Shown piece by piece: positions 3,890 to 33,897 of a DNA stretch of 64,000 bases. The DNA lies in contig OY970340.1 in assembly GCA_963717465.1 (NCBI GenBank), positions 1,216,001-1,280,000 on the forward strand. Direction: 5' to 3'. The translations under genes were made by a program, and so were the position numbers. The notes under the pieces were generated by a model that made no database searches, was not told where the DNA came from, and saw only the letters and a program-made list of their open reading frames with translations. Within the stretch, counting starts at the first letter, position 1; each line of letters begins with the position of its first letter. Source of the DNA: Candidatus Bathyarchaeota archaeon. Lineage in GTDB: Archaea > Thermoproteota > Bathyarchaeia > Bathyarchaeales > Bathycorpusculaceae.

Positions 3890-4319
3890 TTCTCACTAAC
3901 AATCGAACAATTGCTTTTATTTGCTGCCTGTTTGCATTATCACGCGTGCAAACTGCTAGTCTGTATCGTAGCGTTGTCTAAACGCCGTTAGCCTAGTTGC
4001 CAAGAATAGAAACGTAAGTCCAAGCATACTTATTTCAACATGCAAATCTCAATAAAGCGATGGCTAATTAGGTCACATTTGTCTTAGGGGGAAGTGCTAA
4101 TTCTTTTTGCATAGCCACAACTGAGGACTTGCTTATTTACTCTTGAAACAAGAGATCTTTGATCCTGCCATTCAATTGAAAAGGGAATACTGAACTGCGT
4201 AACCTTTTGTAGCGGCTGTAAAGTCGGCTGATTCAGCAAAGCTGAACGAAACAGGATTATTCAGTTAAAAAGCATAAAGAATTTGCGGGTTCATTCTTGC
4301 TAAAAGTTCAAAATAAAAT

Positions 4320-4424
4320 TGTGTCTAAAAAATTGTGTTTCATGCAAATATGTGAATGACGATTGCCTAATTGCTTTATTTTGTGATGAAAGCCGAGAAT
4401 GGCTTATAATCTAACTTAATTATC
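4320..4424 (+). promoter_or_regulatory. Conserved ~105-bp upstream module, copy 6 (upstream of FAD oxidoreductase/MtmB-like operon)
   Basis: TGTG..TGCAAATATGTGAA..TTTTGTG..TTATAATCTAACTTAATTATC. Confidence 0.7.
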
Positions 4425-4457
4425 ATCCAAATCGCATAACTTGAGCCAGTGATAGAA

Positions 4458-6173
4458 ATGGTCGATAAAAATAATCCTAAGAAATGGGATATTGAAACTG
4501 ACGTTGTGGTGGTAGGGTCCGGGGCTGCCGGTTTATGTGCAGCTAACGTAGCAGCTACTGAAGGAGCGAAGGTTGTTGTGCTGGAAAAGACTGATCAGAT
4601 CGGTGGAGCAACAGCGTTGTCAGGAGGCGGATTGTGGGTGCCTAACAATAAATTTCTCAGAATGGGCTTCAAAGTTGAAGTTTATGATCCGGTTAAAAAG
4701 ACTTGGAGCTTTAAGCGTATCGATGGTGATGTAGGCAGAGAGATGGCTATAAGGTACTCAAAAAAGTGTTCAATGGGATATACAACTGATGAACTCATTG
4801 AAACTTACGTTGATAACGCATGGAAGATGACTGACTATCTTGAAGATCATACACGCGTAAGATGGGGTCATACGCGGTTTATGCCTGAATATTACCCAGA
4901 ATGGGATGGAGCGATAAAAGCAGGCAGAACCATAGAATCACTACTTGTTGATTGTAAACAGATGCCAATGGAACTTGTTGAAAAGCTTCGAATATCGCCA
5001 CAAGGCTTCCCAATGCTGATTGATGAAAATGACAAGTGGGGTGGACTTAACGCGATAGCCACTCCTGGCGCATGGGATATGGAAGCCTTACTTGAAAGGG
5101 GAAATAATCGATTAATTGCACTGGGACTTGGCTTGGTTGGATCGTTGGCTTGGTCGTGTAGAGATAAGGGAATCGACATTATGCTTGAGACTCCTGCAAA
5201 ACACTTAGCGGTTGAGAAAGGTCGAGTTGTTGGTGTAATCGCAGAGAAGAAAGGAAAAGAATTGGCAGTTCACGCTAAGAAAGGCGTAATCTTGTGCGCT
5301 GGAGGCTTCGAATGGAACCCGATAATGACCAAGAGCTTTACAAGAGGTCCGCTGTTTGGACCTATGTCTGGACCCGGTAATGCTGGCGATGGGCAACGTA
5401 TGGGAATGGAGATTGGAGCACAAATGTCGCAGATGCAGGATGCATGGTGGTTCCCAACAACTTACGTCGATGGAGATTCATATGAGGGTCATCCGTCTTA
5501 CAGAATGATTATGTATGATAAGTCTACTCCCGGAACAATATGGGTTAACAAGTATGGGAAGCGGTTCGTTGATGAAGCCATTAACTATAGAAGTGTTATG
5601 AGAGCATTATCCAATTACGATGCCCTCAAACATGACTGGTCAAATTATCCAGCATACATGATCGTTGATGAAGCCTGCCGCAAAAACTATATGGTTGCAC
5701 AATTTCCGCCAGGCGAAGAACTGAGATCACCTCCTTTTACAAAAGGCAATACACTAAGGGAGTTGGCTGAAAAGGTAGGCATAGACCCTAATGGATTGGA
5801 GGAAACAGTGAAGAACTTTAACAAGTTTGCTAAGGAAGGTAAGGATCCAGAGTTTCATCGAGGTGAAAGCTATTATGACTGGTTCTACGGAGACAAAAAC
5901 TTTAAGGGTCCAAGTCCATGCCTTGCACCTCTTGAGACACCGCCGTTCTATGCTATCGCGGTTCTTCCAGGGGTTCTTGGTACTGCGGGAGGCGTTGCGA
6001 TAAACACGAAGGCTCAGGTGCTTGATTACGACAACAAGATAATACCCGGTCTATATGCGGCTGGAAATAACACTGGATGCATTTTAGGCTGGGGTTATCC
6101 AGGTGGTGGATCTACAGTAGGGCCTGCTCTTACTATGGGATATATTGCTGCAAAAGAAATAGTTAAGGAGTAA
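4458..6173 (+). CDS. FAD-dependent oxidoreductase, 3-ketosteroid-delta1-dehydrogenase (KstD)-like family
   Basis: DVVVVGSGAAG, GGATALSGGGLWVP, CAGGFEWN, GKDPEFHRG, GLYAAGN, YPGGGSTVGP. Confidence 0.85.
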   Translation: MVDKNNPKKWDIETDVVVVGSGAAGLCAANVAATEGAKVVVLEKTDQIGGATALSGGGLWVPNNKFLRMGFKVEVYDPVKKTWSFKRIDGDVGREMAIRYSKKCSMGYTTDELIETYVDNAWKMTDYLEDHTRVRWGHTRFMPEYYPEWDGAIKAGRTIESLLVDCKQMPMELVEKLRISPQGFPMLIDENDKWGGLNAIATPGAWDMEALLERGNNRLIALGLGLVGSLAWSCRDKGIDIMLETPAKHLAVEKGRVVGVIAEKKGKELAVHAKKGVILCAGGFEWNPIMTKSFTRGPLFGPMSGPGNAGDGQRMGMEIGAQMSQMQDAWWFPTTYVDGDSYEGHPSYRMIMYDKSTPGTIWVNKYGKRFVDEAINYRSVMRALSNYDALKHDWSNYPAYMIVDEACRKNYMVAQFPPGEELRSPPFTKGNTLRELAEKVGIDPNGLEETVKNFNKFAKEGKDPEFHRGESYYDWFYGDKNFKGPSPCLAPLETPPFYAIAVLPGVLGTAGGVAINTKAQVLDYDNKIIPGLYAAGNNTGCILGWGYPGGGSTVGPALTMGYIAAKEIVKE

Positions 6174-6193
6174 AAAAGGAAAGGTGAAAAAAT

Positions 6194-7559
6194 ATGGGAT
6201 ATCTATTGTGGGAAGTCTTGGAAAGAACTAGAACTGGTCCAATCATGAAAGAAGACGAATTTGAGGTCACATATTTTCCGACGATACTAAAGAAGGTCAT
6301 CCAAGATTACAAGATCAAATGGGATGGCGAGCCAGTAATGGCAGATGCACAGATGGCTGATGCTATTTTTGAAGCTGGTATACAAGTGCTAGTTCAGTGC
6401 GGATTATACTGCAAAGATACTAAACACATAGTTAAATTCAATGAAAATGAACTGAGAGAAGTTGTCAAAACACGAAAGCATGAGGTTGAGTGGGGAACCG
6501 GCAGAGACGTGCTAAAGATGGGTATTAGAGGTCCTGAGGATAAGCAGCATCCATACTGCCTAAATGCGGGCGGAACAATGGGAAGCAACATACAAGAGTG
6601 GAGGGACGCTGTTTATCTCGCTGCTCGTGAACCGACGACAGATGGAATGATGACGGGAATACTTGAGGCGTCTTTTGGTCAGAAGTCAACGTATGCTACG
6701 CCTACTGAGTCGCTTGCTGTTCATGCTGAATGTGAGTTGATGACTGCTGGGGCGCGCGCTGCGGGAAGGCCTGGTATGTTGCTTGGTTTTCCTGAGACTG
6801 GTACGAGTATGGTTGCGTTGATGCAGGCTTTTGATCCTGGTTACTATACGCCTAAGGAACTGTATGATGCCAGTGCATATACTGCAGGACATGAGGGTAG
6901 TCGTTGATAGGCTTAATCTTGCTTACTTTGCTATGCAGCATGGGATTGTTCCGTGGCAGAGTTGTAGTCCTACGCTGTACGCTTATATCAGTAGTCCTGA
7001 GGAAGCGGCTGTTGAGGGAATGGCTCATTCGCTGGGTCAGATGGCTTATGCAGACGGGTCATTCACCCAGGCAATGAACAACACAATTGATAACCTATAT
7101 GTAGGTACAGATTGTTTTTGGACTAATTCAGCGATGGCTTTGGCTGCAGAAAGAAACATAAAGGTTCCTTGGATTTCCACCGGATTAGGATTAATGCAAC
7201 CTATGACTGACGCTGATTGGTATGCAACAGCATGTAGCTGCATTAATGCTTGTATATCTGGCATGGAAGGAATGTGGATGGTCGATGGTGGTTGCCCCGT
7301 TATCGGTGTAAGATTTGGAAGTGAATTCACACGAGCAGCTGCTGGAATAAAAGTAAGCGAAGGGACCAAGATAATAAAAGAGCTCACCAAGAAATTTGCA
7401 CCGGCTATAAAGGTATTTGACATTAGTCAAATAATGCGCAGTCTTTACTTGGACTATGACCCGGAAACTTTGAAACCTAGAAAGGAAACTGTGGATATGT
7501 ACAATAGGATGACGAAAGAGTTTAAAGACATGGGTTTTGACTACCCAACATGGGGTTAA
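6194..7559 (+). CDS. Monomethylamine methyltransferase MtmB-family protein, pyrrolysine-free; 1-nt frameshift at ~6855
   Basis: RTRTGPIMKEDEF, ADAIFEAG, AAGRPGMLLGFPET; two ORFs join at CCTAAGGAAC. Confidence 0.8.
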
Positions 7560-7770
7560 TGAAGCCCCCATTTTTTTTGATCTAATTAATTTAAAATTAA
7601 AAAATTCTCTAATTCATTTAAAGCAGACATTATTTTCAAACACTAAGAGGGGAGCGTGCACGCGCGAGCAAGCACACATATTGATTCAGAGAAGATGGAT
7701 AACTAAGTGTGAATAGCTCACGCGGTAAGGAGGCACTTTAACCGTAGCCTTGATCTTGCTGTTTCAATAA

Positions 7771-8169
7771 CTAATATTCCACATCTGGAAGATTCTTTGC
7801 AAGCTCAGCCATTCGTGTTATAGTTTTAATGTTCTTCATCATCTTTGAGAATGGTCCTTCAATCTTGTATTTCCCAGTAACTGTTGCCTTCTGAGCATTA
7901 ATCGTTCCTTGCACAACTCCAGCCCATGTTACATAATCACCTAGGAATTTAAAGTCAACTGGATCATTCAGGTTTCCCTCTTTAACAGTAACATTCCCAT
8001 TGTCCCACGTAGCAATAAAAGTCAACGGAGTACCAAAATCAGTAATTTTGTCAGTAAAGACATACGCCCACTTCTCTGTAAGACTTCCCGCTTTCATGAT
8101 CGGATCATTACTCATCGTTTTCGCCCACAAGTCATAATATGCTTGTGTACCATACTTTACTTTCGCCAT
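7771..8169 (-). CDS. SCP2 sterol-binding-domain protein
   Basis: GAGGAGGTGA SD; DFKFLGDYVTWAGVVQGTINAQKATVTGKYKIEG. Confidence 0.8.
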   Translation of the reverse strand: MAKVKYGTQAYYDLWAKTMSNDPIMKAGSLTEKWAYVFTDKITDFGTPLTFIATWDNGNVTVKEGNLNDPVDFKFLGDYVTWAGVVQGTINAQKATVTGKYKIEGPFSKMMKNIKTITRMAELAKNLPDVEY

Positions 8170-8236
8170 CTTCTTGTCACCTCCTCATACTTTCCGTGTG
8201 CAGGTTTGTGAAGTTGAAAAACTATACTGTCTGATG

Positions 8237-8341
8237 AATATTTATGGTTGAATTATAGCAAGCTAATACTTCTAACACAAAATAAAGATATTTTGAGTTA
8301 CCTATTTACAAAATTGCATGAATAAAAGGTTTTTAAGCACA
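8237..8341 (-). promoter_or_regulatory. Conserved ~105-bp upstream module, copy 7 (inverted, upstream of SCP2 gene)
   Basis: Reverse complement reads TGTG..TGCAATTTTGTAAA..TTTTGTG..TATAATTCAACCATAAATATT. Confidence 0.7.
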
Positions 8342-8750
8342 ATTTGAATTGCACCTTTTTTTTGCTTTCAATCATAAAATTGTTAGCGAAAGGCGATGAC
8401 CGTGATAAAAATCACCAGTGTGCTCCAGAGCGTGTTCTGGGGTTAACTCAAAACCTCCATATCTTTTAAACTATTTTTTAATTTTTTACTTAACTAAAAA
8501 ATTGCCTTGCCATTATCCACAAAAAGAAACTTGGGCATTATCATCATTTTCTTTGCTGCTAATCGTTAATTTTTCTCACCTAGCATGAAATGGAAAGAAT
8601 TAAAATAAATTGGCAATCATCATACATAAAGACCGAAATTTGCATGCGCACTAACGCTTTTATTGCTTGGGTATTTTGAGCCAGCAAACTTGAGAATAAC
8701 GTTTCCAAGTATGGACGATGTGCAAAAATTGTTAAGAACACAAGGCTGGG

Positions 8751-8878
8751 CTAGATTTGCCGTGTCTTAATTAGCAAAAAGAGCTTAAAGGGTGACTATT
8801 CTGCGAAAGTTGGTGCTTCGGCCTAGTTCTATACTCGGGTTCTGACTCGGAAAACACGCTTGATAGATTTTTGTTAAT
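8751..8878 (-). repeat. att-like repeat containing a degenerate tRNA-Glu 3' half, copy A
   Basis: Aligns with 12066-12197 (GGCCTAG.TCTATACTCGGGTT.T.ACTCGGAAAACACG) and with 19891-19943. Confidence 0.75.
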
Positions 8879-8900
8879 ATCAATGAAATCGAATTCTGAT

Positions 8901-8968
8901 AGTGCGGAGGGTAAGGCTTTGAACCCTCATCACGGTGGGGATGTCACTCGCCCTTCACCATCTTTTTT
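8901..8968. repeat. ~60-bp dispersed repeat (tRNA T-arm-like + GGAGATRTCACCCGCA box + T tract), copy 1
   Basis: TTTGAACCC..GGGGATGTCACTCGC..TCTTTTTT. Confidence 0.55.
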
Positions 8969-9117
8969 GCAGTACTTTTAGTTTGTTTTCTACGCGTTAA
9001 AGTTGCTTGCTTTTGTGTTGCTCCATAGTTATAATCTTTAGAGTCTAACCTTTTTATTTGCAATGTGTAAAAAATTAGGGATTTATATTTTAAGAACTTT
9101 GTATCATTGGGTTAAAA

Positions 9118-9327
9118 GTGGTTGATATGTCTGCCAATCCATTAGCTTCTGACGAAGTACGAAGAAAAAAGAGAGTAGTTGGTGTAATTGCAATAGTTCT
9201 TTTGCTGTTTTTCACCGTTTTGGATATATTACGATTCATTTCGGTAATAGTGTGGATTATAGCAGATTTGGCTGTGGCGTTAATAGCGAATTTTCTGATT
9301 AGAAGAATTGGAAGAGTAAGCCTCTAA
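9118..9327 (+). CDS. Small two-TM membrane protein
   Basis: Basic stretch followed by two hydrophobic segments. Confidence 0.65.
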   Translation: MVDMSANPLASDEVRRKKRVVGVIAIVLLLFFTVLDILRFISVIVWIIADLAVALIANFLIRRIGRVSL

Positions 9328-9544
9328 ATACTAATGTTTTGTCTGATGCCTTAAACGCTTGTTACCGCTGGCTAGACTTCATCTGGCTGTTGACGTTAGA
9401 AGTGATTTTGATAGCTGTTGAGGACGGTTTTGATCACGTCTGCGACTTCCAAGATGGTAACCTATTCAGAAAAAGAAAGTAACATGCTGGCGTATGGCAA
9501 CTGCGGGAAACAAGTTTTGCCACCCCTCGGCAATTTACTTATAA

Positions 9545-9609
9545 TGGTGCGCGGGGTGGGACTTGAACCCATGTCAGGGAGATGTCGCCCGCATCGTCTT
9601 CCCTTTTTT
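9545..9609. repeat. ~60-bp dispersed repeat, copy 2; includes an intact tRNA 3' fragment on the minus strand
   Basis: Minus strand reads TGGGTTCAAGTCCCACCCCGCGCACCA; plus strand continues GGGAGATGTCGCCCGCA..CCCTTTTTT. Confidence 0.65.
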
Positions 9610-9678
9610 ATAGCGCATTTAAGGTGTCGGGCGATAAGAAATGATATTGGGCAGGGGGCGCATCTATACCTTTCGGCG

Positions 9679-11073
9679 TCAGGGATTGCCTATGTCTGAT
9701 GCTGTCGCGGCCGCCTTGATCAGCTCGCCGTCCTCGGCCAGCAAAAAGCCTGATTGTACAGCTGCATCAGTAGCCTTTCCTACAGCCTTTACATAAGTAT
9801 GGTGGTCGGGGTACAATTTTGAGAGTGTTACTTTATCAAACAGCTTAGTAGTTCCGTAAAGACCCAGGCCGGAAAGCCTGGCGACAGGTACATCGACAAA
9901 GGGGGTGCGGATGCCACCTTTCACATTGCCAAGCTCATCGAGCACAAGTTCTGGGGGATTACCAGCGATCTCGAGTCGGGCAGCGGCAGTCGGGGCAACA
10001 CCGGTGCACACCCATTTGTCGAGTTGGTGAATCGCCGCTCTTGTAATGAAATGCTGTGGTCCCGCATTTATCGGCAGATCGCAATCCGCAAAACCAGAAT
10101 TAGGTCTTGCTACCTCAACTACATTGGCAAACGATGGATCATTACCGGTGTCATCTTTACCTGTGAGCAGATAGAGATCAGCGTGTGCGGTACCCGCCAT
10201 TTCCCACAGCCGGATTTTATCCGTATCGTCCTGCCTTGCCTTATAATAACCAAGCAACATGAGATCCGTTTCCGACTCTAATATCAGAACGGGAACATTG
10301 ATGTCAGTGCGGATGAAAACCTGATCCATATCTGAAAAATCAATATTCTCTTTAGAATTGACCTCAGTTGAATTGTTTTCGAATAATGCGAAACCCGATC
10401 GGCCGTGTAAAAGAAATCCATCAAAGACTTGATCACGGAGCTGGATAGCATTGACATAGGAAGTGAGATGCATAGCGGATTGTGATTCGCCTACCGCCAA
10501 TATACGATCGGCATGGCATCCAGCGAGTAGATTGACGCTGCCCGGGCTACGAATGGCTCTGGCAGCTTGTGAATAAATATCATAGCAATATTCATCCCCG
10601 GGATGGGTTAGTGACCCATAACGTTGCGGATCAGCGGTTTTCAGATCCAATTTGACATTGCCTAATGAAATGGATGAGTGGCCTTCAACTCCTCCACATT
10701 GTGCCGACACGCCAATCCAGATATAACCCCGGCGGAGTAATTCGTTGTGCATAAATATCCAATCGGGTGCGTAATCGAGTCCGCCTGAAACGTTGAGCCA
10801 CTCCATTACAACGGTGCCGTTGAATTTGGCAACATCCAAGGGCTGGCAGACTATAATCCTGGTCTTATAGGCAGCAGATCCCATCGGTTCTACTTCCCAG
10901 ATGCCGTTCGCTGGTAATTCATTGACATTACGATATGATATAGCAGTTCCAGAGATGAAATATTCTTTTGTTTCGTATCCAGCGGCTGTTAGGACTTGAT
11001 TCGATGGTGTGCTCATCAAAAAAGGTACGCTGGGACCGGCGATGGGTCCCTCGATAATGGGAATACTGATCAC
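9679..11073 (-). CDS. Alpha/beta hydrolase domain protein
   Basis: FNGTVVMEWLNVSGG, GESQSA nucleophile elbow, WEMAGTAHAD, GGIRTP; more GC-rich than its flanks. Confidence 0.8.
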   Translation of the reverse strand: MISIPIIEGPIAGPSVPFLMSTPSNQVLTAAGYETKEYFISGTAISYRNVNELPANGIWEVEPMGSAAYKTRIIVCQPLDVAKFNGTVVMEWLNVSGGLDYAPDWIFMHNELLRRGYIWIGVSAQCGGVEGHSSISLGNVKLDLKTADPQRYGSLTHPGDEYCYDIYSQAARAIRSPGSVNLLAGCHADRILAVGESQSAMHLTSYVNAIQLRDQVFDGFLLHGRSGFALFENNSTEVNSKENIDFSDMDQVFIRTDINVPVLILESETDLMLLGYYKARQDDTDKIRLWEMAGTAHADLYLLTGKDDTGNDPSFANVVEVARPNSGFADCDLPINAGPQHFITRAAIHQLDKWVCTGVAPTAAARLEIAGNPPELVLDELGNVKGGIRTPFVDVPVARLSGLGLYGTTKLFDKVTLSKLYPDHHTYVKAVGKATDAAVQSGFLLAEDGELIKAAATASDIGNP

Positions 11074-11337
11074 GATGACACCCTCGCTCGTGCGGTTAAC
11101 TGCGGAATAATCTTGCTACCAATCAAATACAAACCCTCTTCAATTGGCATATTCATTTCTCCCCTTTCCTTCAAATTTGATAATAAAAGGTAAGCTCTAA
11201 GCGTATATTAGGTTAACTTTGGACGTAGTTCTTAACTTCAACTCAGTACTTTTGTGGCTAGTTGACTTTTGTTATTTAACAAGCAAATATACCTGCAGGT
11301 GCGTTGGATTCCACGCAACAGTAAATTGAACAGACAT

Positions 11338-11388
11338 GACTTAAACCCCCAGTTAAGTGGAGATTTCACCTGCAAAGCCCCCTTTTTT
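11338..11388. repeat. ~60-bp dispersed repeat, copy 3
   Basis: GACTTAAACCC..GTGGAGATTTCACCTGCA..CCCCCTTTTTT. Confidence 0.55.
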
Positions 11389-11837
11389 CTTAAAAGCAAC
11401 CATTCTGACAGCTAGGACGAGCCCTTCGATACCAATTACTTCTACTTCTTTATCTTTTTCTATCCAGCTCTCCTTTGCCACGGCTTGCCAGAATTCACTC
11501 TTGACACGAATTTCCCCCTTCTGTTTTAAATCAGTAATAGCAATTCCTATTGCGCCAACTAGTATTCTGGACCTGCCTTGACATTGGCAAGCATATCCAT
11601 CCTAACTCCTCTGTAAAGACGAAACGCTCGGAAAGTTAATATCACAATACCGAATATGACAACCAAAACCTGAATTAGTAAACTAACCCTGAAAAAACTA
11701 AGACCTAAAACAATGAAAAACAAAATTAAACCCGGAATCAACGTCCAAAGAATAATCAGAAAAACCCACTCCAAAGGCTTGCTTAGATTCCTCCTTTCTT
11801 CGCATGCTAAAACAAAACCGCCATTCTTAAACCTCAT
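11353..11837 (-). CDS. NfeD-like membrane protein; 1-nt frameshift at ~11562
   Basis: Hydrophobic ORF 11559-11837 continues in another frame as LVGAIGIAITDLKQKGEIRVKSEFWQAVA, homologous to 62016-62414. Confidence 0.7.
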
Positions 11838-12065
11838 TTTTCACGCTACCCGTGTAAACTTGATTTTGATCCACATTGTCCAAAAGATAATCTAGATGAA
11901 GAGTTACTTAAATAGAAAGAAGGTGTAGTTGGAATCAAGTATTACGTGCGCTTTTAATCCCAAACATATAAACCGTCTTTTGCTTATTTTTTGGGGGAGT
12001 TTTATGCTTGCGAAGTAATAAACGAATTTTCAGGGAAAACAAGCGGCAAATACGCTTAAACTAAG

Positions 12066-12197
12066 CTCGATTTGCAACGCCTTAATTACCAAAAAAAGCC
12101 TAAAAACTGACTATTTCGGGAAAGTTAATTAGTGCTCCGGCCTAGGTCTATACTCGGGTTTTAACTCGGAAAACACGATTTACATCTTTTTGTTAAT
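12066..12197 (-). repeat. att-like repeat containing a degenerate tRNA-Glu 3' half, copy B
   Basis: 12111-12142 CTATTTCGGGAAAGTTAATTAGTGCTCCGGCC is identical (32/32) to 19912-19943 at the tRNA-Glu 3' end. Confidence 0.85.
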
Positions 12198-12337
12198 TTG
12201 AATACTTTAAAGAAGAGGTTATCTCAAAAGAAGTGTTTAACATAATTTTACGTTTCATAAATCCAGTTTGATTAATTATCGCAACTTAAGCGGTTCCAAT
12301 CCCTAAAATATTTAAATCCAAGAGAATAATTGTATTC

Positions 12338-12799
12338 ATGGCTCAAGGCAGGAAAGAAGAACTAAAAAGCGCCGTTTTAGGAAAGAACGTCACAAAATTT
12401 GTTTTTAATCGTCCCAGCGCCAAAATTCTTGAGATATTTCAAAACAGGTACTCAAAACGTGATTATTTCATTAATATTGATATACCCGAGTTTACCAACA
12501 TTTGTCCGTTAACTGGACAACCAGACTTTGCGGTAATTCGCATACGCTACGTTCCCGACGAAAAATGCTTAGAGTCAAAATCGCTGAAAATCTACATTTT
12601 CTCTTATCGCAATTTTCCTGAATTTCATGAAGATTGCATTAACAGAATTTTAGATGATTGTGTAAAGGTATGTGCGCCTAGATGGATGCAAGTATCGGGC
12701 AAGTTTAATGCCAGAGGAGGCATTTCATTCACGCCTGTGGCTGAGTTCACTAAAAAGGGTTTCAAATTGGCTCAGCAGAGCGCAAAATTAGATTTATGA
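12338..12799 (+). CDS. queF: NADPH-dependent preQ0 reductase QueF (type I)
   Basis: PEFTNICPLTGQPDFA, ESKSLKIY QueF motif, FHEDC, FNARGGI. Confidence 0.9.
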   Translation: MAQGRKEELKSAVLGKNVTKFVFNRPSAKILEIFQNRYSKRDYFINIDIPEFTNICPLTGQPDFAVIRIRYVPDEKCLESKSLKIYIFSYRNFPEFHEDCINRILDDCVKVCAPRWMQVSGKFNARGGISFTPVAEFTKKGFKLAQQSAKLDL

Positions 12800-12825
12800 T
12801 GCTCGCAAGAGTTGAGGATGCAAAG

Positions 12826-13254
12826 ATGAAAAAATCTGAATTCGACAAATATCTCCAAGAAAGGTACAATGACCAAGTAAAATGGTATGACACCAAAGCA
12901 ATCCTTTACAAAAGATTGAATTACATATTCCAAATCCCAACAATCTTTGTTGCAGCAATTATTCCAATATTCGCTTTGCTTGAACAAAAATGGGTAACAG
13001 TAATCCTTTCAGCTACAATGGCTATATTTATCGGAATCCTGAACTATTCCAAATTCGAGGAAAAATGGCATAATTATAGGTTTACATGTGAAAGACTAAA
13101 GAAAGAACTCTTCTTTTACACAGGTAAAATTGACGACTATAAAAATGCAGAAGAACCAGAGAGCTTGTTTGTTCAGCGAGTTGAATCAATTACTTCCGAC
13201 GAACATTCACAGTGGGTCACAATTGAAAAAACCAAGAAGAAACAAAATCAATAA
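12826..13254 (+). CDS. SLATT/DUF4231 two-TM protein, putative effector
   Basis: YLQERYNDQVKWYDTKA, two TM helices, WHNYRFTCERLKKE. Confidence 0.8.
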   Translation: MKKSEFDKYLQERYNDQVKWYDTKAILYKRLNYIFQIPTIFVAAIIPIFALLEQKWVTVILSATMAIFIGILNYSKFEEKWHNYRFTCERLKKELFFYTGKIDDYKNAEEPESLFVQRVESITSDEHSQWVTIEKTKKKQNQ

Positions 13255-13264
13255 GGCGATTTAA

Positions 13265-14254
13265 TTGCTTGTTGAAAAAAAATCACTTAGATCTTTTAAA
13301 ATTGAAGATTCTGGAAAATCATTTGAAACCCCTTTGTTTGTCCCTGCGACATCTAGTACAAAAGCAAATTGGACAGTTTTGCAATATATTGACTTAATAG
13401 AAAACGTCGGGTATCCGTCGTTTCTTGTCTCAGCTTATGATTATTGCAAGCTTGAAAAAAAGCAAAAAGAGGATTTTGAGAAGCTTTTGGGAAAATACAG
13501 AAAGAAAGGCACTTTTTTCTTTTTAGATAATGGTAACTATGAAGCTTATTGGTACAAAGACAAAAAATGGAATCTGGACGGATTAAGAGATGCTTTGGAG
13601 ACTGTTTGCCCAGACTTTTGCTTTTCCTTTGATGTTTTCTGGGAAAAAGACACAAAAACAGAATCATACATCAAAGATACTGTATCGGCTATTGCAAAAA
13701 CAGCAGGTTCGCAAAAAACAGGGTCAACTATTGCATTGTTTCATTCCAGGCCTGATTTATTTCCGAAAGTAGTTAGAAAAGTCGTTGATAGCATTAATCC
13801 CGAAATAATTGCTGTCCCTGAAAGGGAATTAGGATGTAGCGTTTTTGAACGTGCCCTATCAATTAAAAACATTCGAAGTGAACTTGATAAAGACGGAAAG
13901 TTGATACCAATGCATATTCTCGGCACAGGTAACCCACTTTCAATTCTTATTTACACATTGTGTGGAGCTGATACCTTCGATGCCCTTGATTGGTCAAGTG
14001 TATTTATGGACCCAAAAACTTGTCAGCAGGGTCATTTTTCACAGAAGGATTTGTCAACCTGTAGTTGCGAGGCATGTCAATTGAAACAGGTTCCATACGA
14101 TTACCAGGTCATGGCCCACAATCTAATCTTCTATCAAAGATTCTTGGAAAAAATCAAAAAATCTCTTGAATCATGTAAAGTTGATACGCTGCTCAAAGAG
14201 TATCTATCTGACAAAAACGTATTGGAAGTAAAGAAAATAGCGGTATTGAAATGA
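13265..14254 (+). CDS. Divergent tRNA-guanine transglycosylase (TGT)-family protein, Cap10-like
   Basis: ETPLFVP, FLDNGNYE, HILGTG, GADTFD, Zn site CSCEAC..HN. Confidence 0.8.
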   Translation: MLVEKKSLRSFKIEDSGKSFETPLFVPATSSTKANWTVLQYIDLIENVGYPSFLVSAYDYCKLEKKQKEDFEKLLGKYRKKGTFFFLDNGNYEAYWYKDKKWNLDGLRDALETVCPDFCFSFDVFWEKDTKTESYIKDTVSAIAKTAGSQKTGSTIALFHSRPDLFPKVVRKVVDSINPEIIAVPERELGCSVFERALSIKNIRSELDKDGKLIPMHILGTGNPLSILIYTLCGADTFDALDWSSVFMDPKTCQQGHFSQKDLSTCSCEACQLKQVPYDYQVMAHNLIFYQRFLEKIKKSLESCKVDTLLKEYLSDKNVLEVKKIAVLK

Positions 14255-14991
14255 CTGAACTTTGCTTGATTACTGAAAGAATTGAGAATACTATTATGAA
14301 GGTGTGCGACTTCGTCGATTCACAACAAACAACTGGCTCTTGTTGGAAAAACCTCTGCGAGGAAGAGCTTTGGCCAGAATTGGTGTCCTGTATATTGGGC
14401 AGTAGAGTTAGATATGAGACTGCGAAAGCATGTTCTATCCAGTTATTAAAAACTGGTTTGCTTGATATTTCTACTATTTTGAAAAATCCTAAGCGTGTTG
14501 AAAAAGCAATAACCAAGGAATTAGGCAGACCCATGTATCCGCCAATGAAAGGCCGCCTAGGTTCAAGATAGCGTTACCCGAAATCCAAGTCTAAATTTAT
14601 CGTAGACACCGCGGTTAAAATATACTATGAAGACAAAACTACGATAAAGGATATTCTAAATAGCTCTCATGATGGGATTGAAGCAAGAGCGACGCTGATT
14701 GAAAAATGCAAAGGTATAGGACCAAAACAAGCAAGTCTTTTTCTTAGAAACATAAGTTTTAGCAATGATTTGGCTATTCTTGATTGTCATGTTGACCGAT
14801 ACATGAGATTGCTTCGATTGAGCGATAGTTTGGACTTGATAGACAAGCAGAAAATGCATCCCTATTTTAAGATGGAAAATAAGTTGAGAATATACGCGAT
14901 ATCTAAAAAGAGATCGCTTGCAACTTTGGATATAGGCATTTGGACTGTTATGCGCCTAGTAAAAAAGGAGGATATAGTATGGCAGTTGTAA
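14251..14991 (+). CDS. HhH N-glycosylase/DNA lyase (Ogg-like, Cap11-like) with an in-frame TAG at 14569-14571
   Basis: Frame stays open after the TAG: RYPKSK...KGIGPKQASLFLRN...LAILDCHV (helix-hairpin-helix with catalytic Lys and Asp). Confidence 0.8.
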
Positions 14992-15608
14992 GTTTAGTTT
15001 CTGGTGGAATTGATTCTCTAACTATGTCAAAAATTATTGTTGAACAAGGAGAAGAAATATTACCGATTTTTATTGACTATGGTCAATTAGCTAAAGACAA
15101 GGAATGGGCTGCCTGTCAACTGGTTTTCAAGGAATCTGGCTTGTCTGCCCCAATCAGAATCGACTTAAGCGGTTATGGCAAATTAATGCCGACAGGAATT
15201 ACTGACCCAAAAAAGGAAATACGTGATCAAGCTTTTCTTCCCGGAAGAAATCTCTTATTTCTTGTTGTCGGAAGTTCTTATGCTCATTTCAAAGGAGCTA
15301 GGGGAGTAGCAATCGGTTTGCTTACAGAAAAGTCACATATATTTCCTGATCAGACTGGCAGATTTGTTGTCAATACAAATATAGCTGTAAACGAAGCTCT
15401 GGACGATGATATTACTATATTGACGCCGCTGATTAATTTCTCCAAAAGCCAAGTAATCGAACTTGCTAAACACTACAAACTTCCAATAGAAAAAACATAT
15501 TCTTGTCACTCGGGTAACGACACTTATTGTGGGAAGTGTATTTCTTGCCTGGAGCTTCTCGGTTCAATTGGAAAAGACTTGCCACAATTTAAAGCTAAAG
15601 GTGTTTAA
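14979..15608 (+). CDS. queC: QueC-family protein (7-cyano-7-deazaguanine synthase-like, Cap9-like)
   Basis: GGAGGA SD; SGGIDS PP-loop, IDYGQ, PGRNLLFL, FPD, TYSC..CGKCISC. Confidence 0.9.
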   Translation: MAVVSLVSGGIDSLTMSKIIVEQGEEILPIFIDYGQLAKDKEWAACQLVFKESGLSAPIRIDLSGYGKLMPTGITDPKKEIRDQAFLPGRNLLFLVVGSSYAHFKGARGVAIGLLTEKSHIFPDQTGRFVVNTNIAVNEALDDDITILTPLINFSKSQVIELAKHYKLPIEKTYSCHSGNDTYCGKCISCLELLGSIGKDLPQFKAKGV

Positions 15609-15609
15609 T

Positions 15610-16131
15610 GTGGGTGGTTCACCGGTATACAGCGATACGGGTCATGGTGGAGCAACTGATACTGACAAGTTGCAGGATATCGCTCGAAAAGAGCTTGAAA
15701 AACCAGCTCCAGAATCTAGAAAGAAAGTTTTCCTCAGCTTCAAAGGAGAAGATAAGACCTATGTTGACTTATTCCGTGGTCAGGCAAAAAATGAAAATTC
15801 AGACCTTGATTTCATTGACTTTTCGCTCAGAGCACCTTTTAACAGCGAAAACGCCGAGTATATCAAAAGTGGGATCAGACAAAGAATTGAGCAATCTTCT
15901 GTTACAATTGTGTGCTTAACTGAAGACACTCACAAGAGCGAATGGGTGGATTGGGAAATCAAAGAAAGCATAAGGCTTGGTAATGGTGTAATAGGTGTAA
16001 AAATGAAAGATGATTCCTCAATAAAGACACCAAAAGCAATGGAAGAAAATGGTTGCAAGGTGGTCAACTGGAATCACGAAGAGATTAATCAAGCGATGAG
16101 TGAGGCGGATAAAAAGCGCAAAGAACAATAA
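15610..16131 (+). CDS. TIR-domain protein (ThsB/MTH538 DUF1863-like) with an N-terminal MGGS extension
   Basis: GTG at 15610, 1 nt after the queC stop, with AGGTG SD; KVFLSF, YIKSGIRQRIEQSSVTIV, SEWVDWEI (catalytic Glu). Confidence 0.85.
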   Translation: MGGSPVYSDTGHGGATDTDKLQDIARKELEKPAPESRKKVFLSFKGEDKTYVDLFRGQAKNENSDLDFIDFSLRAPFNSENAEYIKSGIRQRIEQSSVTIVCLTEDTHKSEWVDWEIKESIRLGNGVIGVKMKDDSSIKTPKAMEENGCKVVNWNHEEINQAMSEADKKRKEQ

Positions 16132-16491: not shown

Positions 16492-17622
16492 TCATAAAGT
16501 CCTTTTTTTGATTTCAAGCCAGACGAGTGGAATTCCTGATAAAAATGAGCCAACAATAAGAAAAACAAAAGTCAAAATAGTGACGTAGTTATTGCTGAGT
16601 TTGAAATATGTCACAATGTCATTGGGGAAGGTGGCTGCTATTCCTATGAGAAGGATTCCAGCGATCATAGATACTATAAGGGAGTAAACTTCAAGTCTCT
16701 TTGACATTAATTTATATGGAAGCTTGATCGAAGGCGTCTCAAAATTCTCATCGGATTCTGTAACAACTATTTCTGAGCTTTCGCTTGTAAGAGTTTCTTT
16801 GGTTTGAAAATCAAAATACTTGGTATATTTGTCCTGAGCCATTGGCAAATCAATCTCTGATGAGCCTACATGGGATATTAATTTATCATCAACGCTAATG
16901 GTAATTTTTTTGTTTGGCTTGTTGTTATGCTTCTGATGATCTGGATTAAAAGCACTCAAAGATACAGCATACGGTCTTCCTTGACTGATTTTAAAAGAAT
17001 GTTCTTCAATGGATAATTGGGACTTGAGCTCCGTTCTGAGAAGAATGTTGGTTCTGAAAAATATCGAATTACTAAATTGTTCTTGCCCTTTCAATCGGGC
17101 AATAGGGTCAGCTCTTGCCAACATTTTGGCTGTCTCTTCCCAAATCTCTTGTTGAGAGTTTGTGCTGTTTTGATTTCCAACTAAAGGGTCGGCGCCTTTT
17201 AACACAAGTTTTTGAAGATATTCATCACTATTTGGAGTGGCTTTTGATAACATTTTTTTTTGACTCAAAATAGTTCGGATATCATCGTTGAATTTCTTAG
17301 TGTCAACCGGATTTACGAAATCTTCCATGCTTAGAATAATCTGATAAGTTACCCCTATCGTAGGTGGTATGATTTCTGAAACTTTGCAACGTCTGATTGG
17401 ATAAAATTCTGCGTTCTGTTTTGAATAATCAAGGAAGATTACGAGACCAGATATATTTTTAGCTTTGTTCAAATTCAATTTAATGTCATCGGATAGCCAT
17501 TTTTCGTCATACTCGACAAATTGAATCAGGCCGTTTGGTAAACTGAGAATCGAAAGAATCTTCTGCCTGAAGTCGGGATAATAGGTTGATTTAAAGAAGA
17601 AAATGATTTCAGGTGTGCTCAT
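16492..17622 (-). CDS. Hypothetical protein with two C-terminal TM helices
   Basis: 376-aa ORF with two hydrophobic segments at the C-terminus; 19 nt downstream of the radical SAM gene. Confidence 0.75.
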   Translation of the reverse strand: MSTPEIIFFFKSTYYPDFRQKILSILSLPNGLIQFVEYDEKWLSDDIKLNLNKAKNISGLVIFLDYSKQNAEFYPIRRCKVSEIIPPTIGVTYQIILSMEDFVNPVDTKKFNDDIRTILSQKKMLSKATPNSDEYLQKLVLKGADPLVGNQNSTNSQQEIWEETAKMLARADPIARLKGQEQFSNSIFFRTNILLRTELKSQLSIEEHSFKISQGRPYAVSLSAFNPDHQKHNNKPNKKITISVDDKLISHVGSSEIDLPMAQDKYTKYFDFQTKETLTSESSEIVVTESDENFETPSIKLPYKLMSKRLEVYSLIVSMIAGILLIGIAATFPNDIVTYFKLSNNYVTILTFVFLIVGSFLSGIPLVWLEIKKRTL

Positions 17623-17641
17623 TTATCCATTCATCTCTCTT

Positions 17642-18793
17642 TCAGAGCGGAACCTCACATCTGTATCTTCTTATCTCTGGCTCGCTATAAAAGCTTGGAA
17701 GAACACTTTCATACCACAATTGCGTAACAGTTTTCTGAAATCGCACAAATTTCGGAAACCACTCATCTGGACTTTCGTTATCGTGCCAAGGCAGTTTTCT
17801 TCCTTCTTTAAGGGCAGCGACCATATTTGGCTTCACAGCGGAATACGATTTAATTTGCAGCATGTTTGCCCTCAACGGAAGATTTGTATGAATTTGTTTG
17901 AGCCTACAACAACAAATATTCAATCTTCTTTTTAACTCGTCATTTTCAGCAAAAACCATCGGTATTAAATAGACATATGTGTCTGCCTTAAGTTCATTGA
18001 CCAAGAAATTCAAAACCTCAAATTGTTTTGCGAAGAATTCAGGCTGTGAATTAGTAATCTGAGAAAAATCTTCCGATCCTACTTGTCCGTCTCCAATGCC
18101 TTTCAAGCACCCGACTATCCCAAAATTGTGGTTGCCTATAGTTTCCTTTAGTTCATCCAACACTCTTTCCAAGTAATTGGTTGTTGACAAATTACAATCT
18201 GCCCAAACGTAGACACTGTTTGAAATGTTTCGTTTGTCAAGTTCCCTGTAAACGTCGATTATTAGTTCGGGAACTATAGTTGTTGCTTCTCCCCCACTAA
18301 TCCTAATAACATTCAGTTCCTCAGTGGTTGCCCTAAGTTTTTCGTACTCATCAATAATATCGCTTACTTTGAAGTATCGTCCTCTGCCAGCTTCAGGATT
18401 ATTCAAATCCCTGTCCACATAGCAATAGCTGCAATCATAATCGCAACCGTTGAGTTGGATCGTAAACGTATTGTTGTATTTTCGAGGATCACCACCCATT
18501 TTCTTCGCTGCGCTGTAAGGTGGATTCTGAAACTCTAGTTTTTGAAAACCGCCTTCAAGTCCTAGAAATTTCGGTGACCAGATTTCTGAGGTTGGAACAC
18601 TTGTCCACCATTGTGCATATAAATCTGACGGATCTCTGGGATCTATGTACGTTCTAGTCCGAAAATTTTTTTTAATGTCTTTACTATCCTTTATCTGGAC
18701 TCCTTGAGTAAAATCCGGAACAAAATAGCTGTTCGTAGCTGGGTCTCTCATTTGTTTTCTGCGTTTTGCTGCTATTTCTTCTGGATTTAGCAT
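17642..18793 (-). CDS. Radical SAM protein
   Basis: GCDYDCSYCY (CxxxCxxC), IRISGGE. Confidence 0.85.
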   Translation of the reverse strand: MLNPEEIAAKRRKQMRDPATNSYFVPDFTQGVQIKDSKDIKKNFRTRTYIDPRDPSDLYAQWWTSVPTSEIWSPKFLGLEGGFQKLEFQNPPYSAAKKMGGDPRKYNNTFTIQLNGCDYDCSYCYVDRDLNNPEAGRGRYFKVSDIIDEYEKLRATTEELNVIRISGGEATTIVPELIIDVYRELDKRNISNSVYVWADCNLSTTNYLERVLDELKETIGNHNFGIVGCLKGIGDGQVGSEDFSQITNSQPEFFAKQFEVLNFLVNELKADTYVYLIPMVFAENDELKRRLNICCCRLKQIHTNLPLRANMLQIKSYSAVKPNMVAALKEGRKLPWHDNESPDEWFPKFVRFQKTVTQLWYESVLPSFYSEPEIRRYRCEVPL

Positions 18794-30697: not shown

Positions 30698-30721
30698 GGT
30701 TCTGTGAAGTTAGCGTTTGGT
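30698..30721 (+). repeat. Left terminal inverted repeat
   Basis: GGTTCTGTGAAGTTAGCGTTTGGT. Confidence 0.92.
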
Positions 30722-31497
30722 CATTTTTGCTGTGAAAATTCGTTTGGTGAAGCTTTAGATACGTTAAAATGTCTAAGTTCTTCAAATTTCCAGTTCATTA
30801 TGTCAAATAGTAAGTCGTCAAAAGGTCTAACGTTTTTGCAGTATTCAGCATGTGGCTTTCTTTCGTAGTCATCGAAAATTCTTGATTCTATTCCTCGGTA
30901 ACCTTGAGCCTCAGCTCTCTCAAAAACATGATAAAACGTGTCTATGTCAGTAACTATCCCATTATTCACTTGATCGTACTTCTTTATTATGTAGATTCTA
31001 TCCAAGAAGCACTCAAGCAGTTTTCGAGGTTTATTTCCAGTTTCGCATGTTTTAAGCTCTGACTGATTTTTTTGTCCATATCTATCCGCATCTTCGGTAA
31101 CAAGGACGTACTTGATTTTTTGAGGACGTACTAATTGTGCCCAAAAAAGGGCTTCTGTTTCTCTTGCATGAAACGAAACTTTACAGCTAACAATACAAAG
31201 AGGATGCCAAGCTTTGACTACATGGTTTACCTTATCCTCTTCTTTGTAAACAACAACAATATCCGTATCAGGTAATGTCAGAGATTGGTCTTGGGAACAT
31301 GAATTTTTAATTTCTACTTTGAGATAGTTCAATAGTTTCCTGTGAACACCATCCGTCTTTGCCCATCGTGAAATTTGCGAAACTGAGAAAGCTTCAATAT
31401 CTTTTTTGCTAAGTATTTGATTAAGAATTTTTCTAACATTGACTTCTAATTTTGACCCAGTTTCTTGTACACGTCTTTGCCTTTCTGATTCTACCAT
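30721..31497 (-). CDS. Putative type II restriction endonuclease (PD..SCK-type active site)
   Basis: LPDTDIVV..IVSCKVSFHARETE resembles BsaWI/Ecl18kI-like catalytic motifs; 3 nt downstream of the MTase. Confidence 0.7.
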   Translation of the reverse strand: MVESERQRRVQETGSKLEVNVRKILNQILSKKDIEAFSVSQISRWAKTDGVHRKLLNYLKVEIKNSCSQDQSLTLPDTDIVVVYKEEDKVNHVVKAWHPLCIVSCKVSFHARETEALFWAQLVRPQKIKYVLVTEDADRYGQKNQSELKTCETGNKPRKLLECFLDRIYIIKKYDQVNNGIVTDIDTFYHVFERAEAQGYRGIESRIFDDYERKPHAEYCKNVRPFDDLLFDIMNWKFEELRHFNVSKASPNEFSQQK

Positions 31498-31500
31498 AAA

Positions 31501-32382
31501 TCATGCTTCCAATACTAATATTTCAGGTTGAATTCTTTTACATACTGTATCAACGGAAAGACTCATTTGGGGTTTACAGAAATTTTCCAATCTTTTAAGA
31601 GCTATTTCGCAATATTCTTTGCAAATATCTATGTGCACAAATTGTCGGTCATTCTTCATGGCAACGTAAGCTACTGTACCTGTGCCCCCGAACATGTCCA
31701 ACAATATGTCACCCTTGTATGTATAAAATTTTGCCAACCTGTAAATTAGTTCTTCTGGAAATGGGGCCGGATGACCGTTTCTAACTCTTTCCGCTGATAT
31801 GTGCCAAAATCCTTCATTATCAGGTTGAATCTGCCAAAAGCCATCAGAGTATTTTTCAAACTCTTCTGGTCTAATATCAGCTTGAGCTTTCTCTTCTATA
31901 TCGCCTTTTTTGCGTTTTGCATCAAGACGCCATTCATTCTTTGAAAAAACCATTACATATTCCCAAGATGGAATTATATGTGGGTTTGATGGACTTTGCC
32001 AACTTCCCCAAGCGGTTCTTTTAGCGGTCATGCTCTGTTTATACCAGATAATTTCTGTTCGCATTATCATACCGATATCTCTAACAATTCTGGAAATGTC
32101 ATGGTGTACTGGTCTGAAATTCTTTATACTGGTTGGTGCGATATTGATAGCAAGTCTGCCACCTTCCATGAGTACCCGGTTAGTTTCTGCAAAAATGTCT
32201 TTTAGCCATTTTAGGTATTGGTCATATTCTAAGTCGTCGTTATATGTTGCGTAGTTTATGCCTAAATTATATGGTGGCGAGGTTATCGCCATGTGAATAC
32301 TATTTGAGGGTATTTTCTTAAGGACTGCAAGAGCGTCTCCACAAATTATCTTATTTAGAAAGCTCTCTAGGCTTAGTTCCAC
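31501..32382 (-). CDS. Site-specific DNA methyltransferase, beta class (N4-C/N6-A)
   Basis: TSPPY before HPAPFP and DMFGGTGT. Confidence 0.93.
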   Translation of the reverse strand: MELSLESFLNKIICGDALAVLKKIPSNSIHMAITSPPYNLGINYATYNDDLEYDQYLKWLKDIFAETNRVLMEGGRLAINIAPTSIKNFRPVHHDISRIVRDIGMIMRTEIIWYKQSMTAKRTAWGSWQSPSNPHIIPSWEYVMVFSKNEWRLDAKRKKGDIEEKAQADIRPEEFEKYSDGFWQIQPDNEGFWHISAERVRNGHPAPFPEELIYRLAKFYTYKGDILLDMFGGTGTVAYVAMKNDRQFVHIDICKEYCEIALKRLENFCKPQMSLSVDTVCKRIQPEILVLEA

Positions 32383-32399
32383 TCTACAAGACGCTCTCC

Positions 32400-32627
32400 T
32401 TATGTGCTATTTATCGTCTGTTCTGCCTTATCAATACCTATGTTTCCCTTGGAAGGCTCTTTAATTGGTCTAACGACTAGAATTATGTTATTGTCTTTAG
32501 CTTCAAAGTCCCATTCAAGCCAATCACCAGCTTTAAGTTTGTAGTGTTTAAGGATACTCATAGGTACAGTGGTTCTTAGAGATTCTTTACCCGGTGTAGC
32601 AATTGAGAGTTTACTTTTTTCACCCAT
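32400..32627 (-). CDS. AbrB/MazE/SpoVT-type DNA-binding protein
   Basis: SLRTTVPMSI..KLKAGDWLEW. Confidence 0.8.
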   Translation of the reverse strand: MGEKSKLSIATPGKESLRTTVPMSILKHYKLKAGDWLEWDFEAKDNNIILVVRPIKEPSKGNIGIDKAEQTINST

Positions 32628-32766
32628 AATATTTACCTTCTTTAGGGTAATAAAGTTGGTGCGTAGTATATAAGTTTACCCGCTAAGAGATAAACTAAAA
32701 TACCCTAAAGTTTATAAAGTGGCACACTATGTGGTAATGTTTAGGGTAAACAAGAGGGTAAACGAT

Positions 32767-33897
32767 ATGATGAGCATTGAAACACTTGAGAAAGTTCGTG
32801 AAGAAAGAGGTCTAGAGATAGCCCATAAGAAAGGAAATCAAGTTAATCGTATAGATGATTGCTTATACACTGTAAAATCTCAATCTGGAAGCGGTGAGTA
32901 TGCTGTTTGTCAGGTTAACGGCGAGTTAGTTTGTGAATGCCCAGATTTTCAGTTTCGCCATGTAAAATGCAAACACATCTTTGCAGTTGAATTTTCCAAG
33001 TCACTAAGAGAAGCAACTAAACGGATTGCTCCAATAGAGAATCTTGGTGAATGTGTCTATTGTCAATCTTCTAATTTAATGAAGTATGGCGTTCGCAAAA
33101 ATAAAAGTGGAAATCTTCAAGTGTTCTATTGTCGAAATTGCCAAAAATACTTCACCGTTAATATCGGTTTTGAACGAATGAAGCATAACCCTCAAGCGAT
33201 AACCTCAGCTATGCAATTGTACTTTAGCGGTGAAAGCTTAAGAAATACTCAGAATTCGCTTAAGCTGTTGGGCGTTGAGGTTTCTTATCGAACAATTTTA
33301 AACTGGATTAAGAAGTATGTTGGTTTAATGAAGAATTATGTTGAAACTATCACTCCAAACGTTAGCGATACTTGGAGAGCCGATGAAATATACATCAAGG
33401 TAAAGGGCGATATGAAGTACCTTTTCGCTATGATGGATGATGAAACAAGATTCTGGATAGCTCAAGAAGTAGCAGAAACTAAGTATAGCCATGATGCAAG
33501 AAAGCTTTTGCAGATGTCTAAACAATTAATGGGCAAAAAACCAGTGACCTTCATAACTGATGGCTTGCCATCTTATCATGACGCATACAAGAAAGAGTTT
33601 TGGACACAGTTGAAAGAGACAAGAACCGAACACATTAACGCAATCAAACTTAGCGGTGATATGCACAATAACAAAATGGAAAGAATGAACGGAGAAATCC
33701 GAGATAGAGAAAAGACCATGAGAGGACTAAAAACAACCGACACAGCAATCTTGACAGGTTACCAATTATTCCATAACTTCATTAGACCACATGAAGCATT
33801 AAACGGTAAAACTCCGAGTGAAGCTTGCGGGATAACTATTGAGGGTGAGAATAAATGGAAAACTTTGATAGAAAACGCAAGCAAAAAGACAAAATAG
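32767..33897 (+). CDS. IS6-family DDE transposase with N-terminal SWIM and Zn-ribbon domains
   Basis: CECPDF..CKH, CVYC..CRNC, WRADE, TDGLPSY, NNKMER, HNFIRPH. Confidence 0.9.
   Translation: MMSIETLEKVREERGLEIAHKKGNQVNRIDDCLYTVKSQSGSGEYAVCQVNGELVCECPDFQFRHVKCKHIFAVEFSKSLREATKRIAPIENLGECVYCQSSNLMKYGVRKNKSGNLQVFYCRNCQKYFTVNIGFERMKHNPQAITSAMQLYFSGESLRNTQNSLKLLGVEVSYRTILNWIKKYVGLMKNYVETITPNVSDTWRADEIYIKVKGDMKYLFAMMDDETRFWIAQEVAETKYSHDARKLLQMSKQLMGKKPVTFITDGLPSYHDAYKKEFWTQLKETRTEHINAIKLSGDMHNNKMERMNGEIRDREKTMRGLKTTDTAILTGYQLFHNFIRPHEALNGKTPSEACGITIEGENKWKTLIENASKKTK

Follow-up and report, generated by a model that had tools for sequence, protein, structure and literature searches.

The window analysed here, a stretch of 64,000 nucleotides from a Candidatus Bathyarchaeota archaeon, carries six genes in tandem, all of them plus-strand, in the order queF–SLATT–cap10–cap11–cap9–TIR. 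The first, queF (12338..12799), encodes a 153 aa protein of the unimodular nitrile-reductase type (PF14489, E 1.3e-32) in which C56, D63, the E-S-K-S motif (E79-S80-K81-S82) and E98 are all kept, as expected of a nitrile reductase with its catalytic Cys, Asp and Glu and its E-S-K-S motif; its residues 5-146 align with PDB 4f8b at E 2.1e-44. There follow a gene for a SLATT/DUF4231 membrane protein (12796..13254; PF14015 E 2.5e-18, PF18181 E 1.6e-12), which is a predicted effector of ThsH-like type, and cap10 (13265..14254), whose 329 aa TGT-like product (PADLOC TGT, E 3.9e-27) finds its best PDB match in Cap10 (9ntn_A). The OGG-like glycosylase gene cap11 (14251..14991), recognised through its second half (PF22175, E 1.4e-19), has an in-frame TAG at 14569-14571, and cap9 (14979..15608) encodes a QueC-like protein of 209 aa (PF06508 E 6.6e-38; PADLOC QueC E 7.1e-31). 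Last comes the gene for a ThsB-type TIR protein (15610..16131; PF08937 E 6.4e-23; PADLOC ThsB E 4e-18) having a Bacillus cereus TIR, 8fz9, as its closest fold match and a catalytic Glu116 that is invariant in 60 aligned sequences. Apart from cap11 the cassette consists of five full-length open frames with catalytic residues intact.

Taken as a unit this is a type VII-like Thoeris carrying the tagging module of type IV CBASS, and it is likely antiviral. Its genes cap10, cap11 and cap9 are all present in 62 of the 66 related loci that have 2.6 kb of upstream DNA. The complete six-gene cassette is repeated in two further loci (L033, L036) amid different flanking genes, and a TIR query found matches in 4/401 genomes of the class and 0/39 of the genus; the change of flanks and the sparse distribution point to a cassette that may well be mobile. 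Convergent with it in the window, on the minus strand at 16492-18793, are a radical SAM gene (a weak match to the viperin model, E 1.2e-4) and a gene for a 376-aa protein without a Pfam match and with two hydrophobic segments at its end. These are a possible second defence pair, and in the two relatives read they are not beside the cassette.

The start and tail of the TIR protein

The TIR reading frame begins where an earlier note on this DNA had placed it. The cap9 stop codon TAA (15606-15608) is followed by a single T and then by a GTG at 15610-15612, and a Shine-Dalgarno-like AGGTG (15599..15603, plus strand) lies 6 nt ahead of this GTG and is complementary to the 3' end of the host 16S rRNA, GGATCACCTCC. 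The arrangement is kept in relatives, with ATG replacing GTG at the same place in seven loci of about 80-84% identity and in four more distant ones, and with a GGTG-nn-TAAT-start geometry also found in L038 (ATG) and L040 (TTG). The start of the open reading frame track at 15529 does lie within the queC gene, as had been noted, and lacks an SD-like site; it was rejected together with those at 15568 (the position of the database gene call, P0003) and 15601, all being inside queC, free of SD-like sites and unused by relatives. The ATG at 15608 is out of frame with the TIR and begins a frame of 103 aa; at this junction the relatives examined have an in-frame start instead. Translated from the GTG at 15610 the gene reads MGGSPVYSDTGHGGATDTDKL, and the 173 aa product has the N-terminus MGGSPVYSDTGHGG.

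Ahead of the KVFLSF of the TIR core there is an extension of 38 residues, close to the 35 or so proposed before, of which only residues 2-14 (with five Gly) are the Gly-rich stretch that had been attributed to the whole. Residues 1-15 (15610..15654) form an M-G-G-S tail that is predicted to be disordered, with Gly2 as the predicted acceptor, and residues 16-29 (15655..15696) are modelled as a helix with a conserved hydrophobic face (L21 in 58/60, A25 in 53/60 and L29 in 45/60 relatives). In the predicted model residues 7-16 have pLDDT <50 and a Pro-rich linker follows the helix, which is a candidate docking helix for Cap9 or Cap10 and by analogy may resemble helix alpha1 of CdnD. The host genome encodes a type II methionine aminopeptidase (a match over cut-off), and so Gly2 would be exposed. 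Having a glycine there is common by itself, being seen in 35/562 host open reading frames and in 15/56 Cap9 proteins, and M-G-G is seen in 1/562 in the host, namely this TIR (the survey took SD-supported frames of >=150 aa and its start calling is crude).

Conservation of the tail was followed across 108 related loci (25, 80 kept of 93, and 3). Where queC lies directly upstream (98 loci) the TIR starts M-G in 95, M-S-G-G in two and neither way in one, and within the 95 M-G proteins 92 are M-G-G and the start codon is ATG in 92 and GTG in 3. The expectation that M-G-G would be conserved among queC-linked TIRs is borne out, in 92/98. In the lone exception, L002, the TGT and OGG genes are frameshifted as well. 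Dereplication at 90% leaves 58 M-G, two M-S-G-G and one neither among 61 queC-linked loci, and of the 60 aligned relatives 58 have G at position 2, the other two having S, and 57 have G at position 3. At loci clearly without queC, 3/3 TIRs are tail-less; a further seven with too little upstream DNA comprise two tailed, two tail-less and three truncated proteins. Thirteen further proteins with a TIR domain are encoded near these operons, and none of them starts M-G-G. Among 119 database homologues, taken without their gene context, Gly2 is present as called in 99; 16 of the remaining 20 could have it from an internal position (two of them at Ile), three do not have it and one is truncated. Among the tail-less relatives those nearest to the window copy, L015 and L105, consist of just a TIR and a SLATT gene. 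On an unfinished and weakly resolved tree the tail-less relatives fall into about two groups, so the link between tail and queC rests on few independent events, and this quick TIR tree is too weak to separate tail gain from tail loss.

The N-termini were also set against those of CD-NTases, as the earlier note had proposed. A choice of G or S at position 2 is shared, and the two M-S-G-G TIRs (L028:1405 and L040:5971, both queC-linked) fit the Ser option in M(G/S)G(G/S)GG, the motif of the CD-NTases. The tail in the window, MGGSPV, matches that motif at its first four positions only, and in most relatives positions 2-8 are G. Gly or Ser occupies 4/7 of its positions 2-8, against a family median of 6.5/7 (60 sequences), and the tails of P0004 and P0006 are similarly degenerate (MGGTP). 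The broader suggestion, that this TIR has the kind of N-terminal Gly borne by the partners of Cap9, gains from the conservation of the tail and from the adjacent homologues of Cap9, Cap10 and Cap11, whose catalytic residues are conserved.

The tagging module and its partners

According to the text available of 10.1101/2025.04.06.647259, Cap9 conjugates CDG to Gly2 of the CD-NTase. The cap9 product of the window has S8, D12, S13, R90, F122 and D124 aligned with S18, D22, S23, R86, Y115 and D117 of Cap9, all identical save for F122 in place of Y115, and so it retains both the SxGxDS loop and the aromatic residue and Asp (F122, D124) that read the CDG edge. In a QueC tree of 35 rows (29 TIR-linked, two CD-NTase-linked, two of unknown partner and two housekeeping; 28 of 57 extracted loci were taken in, and the groups outside the TIR-linked one have few members) the TIR-linked proteins, those of the window and 28 others, make up one side of a branch with support 96/94.

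Window cap10 keeps D88, D123, H217 and D239, which are invariant in 34 sequences and are the counterparts of the base-reading D73 and D122 and the catalytic H226 and D248 of Cap10. Two further base-reading positions differ: S74 is N89 here, although at least 90% of relatives keep S, and K154 is H160 by a profile alignment in a gapped region. A CxCxxC...H zinc motif, which the solved Cap10 is without in the text available of 10.1101/2025.04.06.647259, is kept in window cap10 and occurs in 2/34 aligned sequences, both of the archaeal branch. In a proteobacterial branch (L011:1048-2187, and L012, L019, L021, L106 and L108) a PfkB-family gene stands ahead of cap10, and the L011 cap10 has an extra N-terminal domain of about 125 aa in which a likeness to TIR can be made out by eye. 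No CDG pathway was detected in several of the hosts of this PfkB-cap10 branch.

That QueC, QueF and the TGT-like protein modify tRNA or DNA, replacing a lost housekeeping queC, with TIR and SLATT as mere neighbours, is a reading to which we give very little credence. It would account for cap9 being the only QueC of the host, for an intact QueF and for the retention in the archaeal Cap10 of a TGT zinc motif missing from the solved Cap10. Yet cap9 is only 29% identical to the housekeeping QueC of the genus, has FPDQ and not YPDC, stands on a separate branch and groups with TIR-linked QueCs; moreover the glycine tail tracks queC across many phyla, and the host genome has a separate full-length TGT.

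At the cap11 TAG the seven closest relatives have TAT (Tyr), and the stop is unique, occurring in none of the 81 other aligned segments (82 in all). Recoding was judged unlikely, relatives having Tyr there, and the TAG could be an assembly error; the two 151-base pieces recovered from a DNA sequencing run lie outside both the TAG and the TIR start. If it is real, Cap11 cannot erase the mark here, since the gene is interrupted, and removal of the mark by the glycosylase, as once suggested for this locus, becomes impossible in this assembly. It may then be asked if the family works as described and the window copy is decaying or dormant, its TIR being untagged in this host, which we consider unlikely on balance. 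The unique nonsense codon and the degenerate tail would agree with decay, as would a CDG pathway that was not found and the absence of the genus queT-queC from its syntenic site. Against this stand the five other genes, full-length and with intact catalytic residues, the similarly degenerate tails of P0004 and P0006, and the chance of an error in the assembly at the TAG. In type IV CBASS, too, deletion of cap11 left defence unchanged, though toxicity rose.

The same module serves other partners within the class. When 401 genomes of the class were searched for Cap10 there were six matches, two beside a TIR, two beside a CD-NTase, one beside a helical protein of no known family and one that is a fragment. 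The CD-NTases beside Cap10 start MGAGG and MGSSGG, and belong to type IV CBASS loci of the same family, with Cap9 and Cap10, at L120:416-4862 (G381) and L122:3610-8013 (G368), each of which also has a Cap17-like effector (with a Pfam match for L120) and a glycosylase-like gene on the opposite strand. The helical protein, of 205-211 aa, follows OGG-QueC-TGT and is accompanied by a 112-aa gene, at L110:4723-7593 (minus strand) in G412 and L123:4080-7316 (plus strand) in G349, where it adjoins genes resembling viral structural genes. Its N-termini are MGGGGGG (G412) and MTGGG (G349), and it may represent a third class of partner for Cap9 and Cap10. The family has 10 database members, with two carriers within the genus; there was no Pfam match, Atlas matches were below 0.9 and the predicted model has pLDDT 43.

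Proposed mechanism, QueF and the source of the base

The reading we favour is that the TIR protein is probably deazaguanylated at its N-terminal Gly2, by analogy with the CD-NTase. Following removal of Met, Cap9 would join 7-carboxy-7-deazaguanine (CDG) to Gly2. Modelled on type IV CBASS, amide formation would be ATP-dependent, with Cap9 docking via the helix behind the tail; Cap10 would capture the tagged tail in an inactive complex, so gating the TIR signal to SLATT, and infection would lead to transfer or release of the tagged TIR. As in type VII Thoeris, the TIR would then convert NAD+ to canonical cADPR and SLATT would breach the membrane. The part left to Cap11, broken in the window copy, would be that of an eraser the system can do without. 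As to the signal, in 39 representative queC-linked loci there are 25 SLATT effectors (one via tblastn), six TPR-S effectors and eight loci with none recognised, from a scan of 105 of 165 candidate neighbour ORFs. In the text available of 10.64898/2025.12.03.692087 type VII Thoeris has a SLATT protein as its effector, and two kinds of effector respond to canonical cADPR, SLATT in type VII and TPR-bearing in type VIII; with effectors that are SLATT or TPR-S, the signal is therefore inferred to be canonical cADPR.

QueF belongs to the cassette in its archaeal form. The gene has the same position in L030, L032, L033, L036 and L111, and is present in 4/54 loci with 1.5 kb upstream of cap10, these being one cluster close to the window copy; among representatives with enough upstream DNA it is in 1/34. 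The other 33/34 representative loci being without it, QueF is dispensable for the core reaction. Four genomes of the class have a Cap10 that goes with other partners, and in these QueF was not found. A copy of 37% identity occurs in a different family of the class (G089). QueF matches were found in 3/401 class genomes, two in the cassette and one (G342) left out of the cassette count as likely foreign, being on a stretch of 65-77% GC beside DNA of 46-50% GC. That stretch (L127, about 4000-13001, contig C24) has bacterial-looking genes within an archaeal contig and is likely a chimeric assembly or contamination. Database relatives of the window QueF form a clade with 37 other clusters at 61-85% identity, and for those on contigs >=3.7 kb 7/15 lie on a contig sized exactly as that of a TIR match, against 0/48 for other QueFs, a circumstantial observation. 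Most likely QueF would reduce preQ0 to preQ1 and thereby set which free deazaguanine competes at the Cap9 and Cap10 pockets, and this is the weakest step of the proposed mechanism.

An alternative with some bearing on QueF is that the tail docks in Cap10 or Cap9 without a covalent CDG amide, or bears a QueF-derived base (for example from preQ0 or preQ1). The presence of QueF in archaeal cassettes would be in keeping with this, as would the N89 and H160 changes in the Cap10 pocket and a QatC reaction that is unresolved in the text available of PMC13279940 despite the Gly motif of QatB. The residues of Cap9 that read the CDG edge and its SxGxDS loop are kept, however, and QueF is missing from nearly all representative loci, so that we think this alternative improbable.

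If the base is CDG its origin has to be considered. In the host, a genome 88% complete, there was no QueD, no QueE over cut-off, no second or housekeeping QueC and no YhhQ found, cap9 being its sole QueC. Genomes G347 and G324 have queT-queC beside a proteasome beta gene; the syntenic site in the host is occupied in continuous sequence by a restriction-modification pair and a transposase, and the queT-queC of the genus is missing. The site, at 30721-33897 of the window, holds genes for a BsaWI-type endonuclease, an N6/N4 methyltransferase, a small regulator and an IS6-like transposase. A QueT of the host, 35% identical over part of its length, is a paralogue at another site and was not accepted as the syntenic queT. 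The genus sample has a QueC match in 29/40 genomes and QueD in 12/40, with queT-queC operons as at L112:4892-6147 and L113:4682-5868, and the occurrence of queC without QueD hints at uptake of CDG and not of preQ0. Bacterial carriers have a QueD-family match in 17/23 (four of them weak), and 5/23 (two isolates, three MAGs) are without QueD, QueF or a second QueC. CDG may thus be missing in the host, and with no CDG route found it would come via salvage, an unrecognised enzyme or a virus, or else the copy is idle.

A more speculative proposal, which we regard as rather a long shot, is that of a tripwire: in hosts unable to make CDG a virus that synthesises 7-deazaguanines for modification of its DNA would supply the base, Cap9 would tag the TIR and QueF would divert preQ0 from the virus. 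Cap9, Cap10 and Cap11 would then be a tagger that moves between systems, its Gly-tailed partners being of at least three unrelated kinds (CD-NTase, TIR and the 205-211 aa helical protein). Its basis is the window host and those five of 23 bacterial carriers without detectable QueD, housekeeping QueC or host QueF.

Were Gly2 of the TIR indeed tagged, N-terminal deazaguanylation would no longer be confined to cyclases but would include TIR enzymes and occur in archaea too, and a single tagging module would gate two unrelated immune chemistries. The TIR version would offer a simpler readout, with an NAD-derived signal and known effectors, for finding the target to which Cap10 passes on its partner. 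Those carriers in which no CDG pathway was detected, together with the archaeal QueF, make the origin of the base (host, medium or virus) a testable matter.

Relation to known defence systems

The idea of the TIR as a new class of nucleobase-conjugated protein, as the earlier note had it, is not new. The core prediction is already in the preprint 10.64898/2025.12.03.692087, which reports Thoeris operons with cap9, cap10 and cap11 (section 9 and the legend of Fig. S10B) and gives AF3 models of the TIR with Cap10 (ipTM 0.79) and with Cap9 (0.62); its main text, as available, has no QueF and no analysis of the N-terminal glycine of these TIRs. The available text of PMC13082051 leaves TIR unmentioned. 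In the literature searched, which mostly leaves subscription journals uncovered, no paper was found pairing QueF with Cap9 or type IV CBASS, nor one joining Thoeris, QueC and an N-terminal glycine. What is new here is the intact QueF in archaeal cassettes, the archaeal host, the nonsense codon in cap11, the degenerate tail and a host in which no CDG route was found.

The background given in the earlier note, that Cap9 and QatC both tag a Gly of their partner, holds for Cap9 (10.1101/2025.04.06.647259) and is overstated for QatC and QatB, for which the text available of PMC13279940 only suggests modification and leaves the QatC reaction unresolved. The cassette is like QatABCD in pairing a QueC-like enzyme with a partner having an N-terminal Gly motif (MGTS in QatB, in that same text of PMC13279940). 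It is unlike it in that the window QueC resembles Cap9, retaining those CDG-reading residues for which QatC has threonines (again PMC13279940), and the QatA ATPase, QatB and the TatD-like QatD found no match among the cassette proteins.

With type IV CBASS, described as CdnD, Cap9, Cap10 and Cap11 with structures PDB 9ntn and 9nto in the available text of 10.1101/2025.04.06.647259, the cassette shares all three helper genes together with the catalytic residues of their products, and in both systems the signalling enzyme begins with a Gly tail and then a helix. Profile searches found no SMODS or CD-NTase among the six cassette proteins, and so the cassette is not a type IV CBASS; it has a TIR for the CD-NTase, a signal predicted to be NAD-derived, S74N and K154H changes with a zinc motif in Cap10, and an added queF. 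In contrast to type VII Thoeris (ThsB with the SLATT effector ThsH and cADPR), with which it has in common the ThsB-type TIR with its catalytic Glu and the SLATT protein, the cassette has four extra deazaguanine genes and the 38-residue extension of the TIR. The cassette is a member of the Thoeris operons with Cap9, Cap10 and Cap11, made up likewise of a ThsB TIR, an effector and the cap9, cap10 and cap11 genes. Relative to those of 10.64898/2025.12.03.692087 it differs in its archaeal host, its additional queF and its broken cap11, and here conservation of the tail has been counted.
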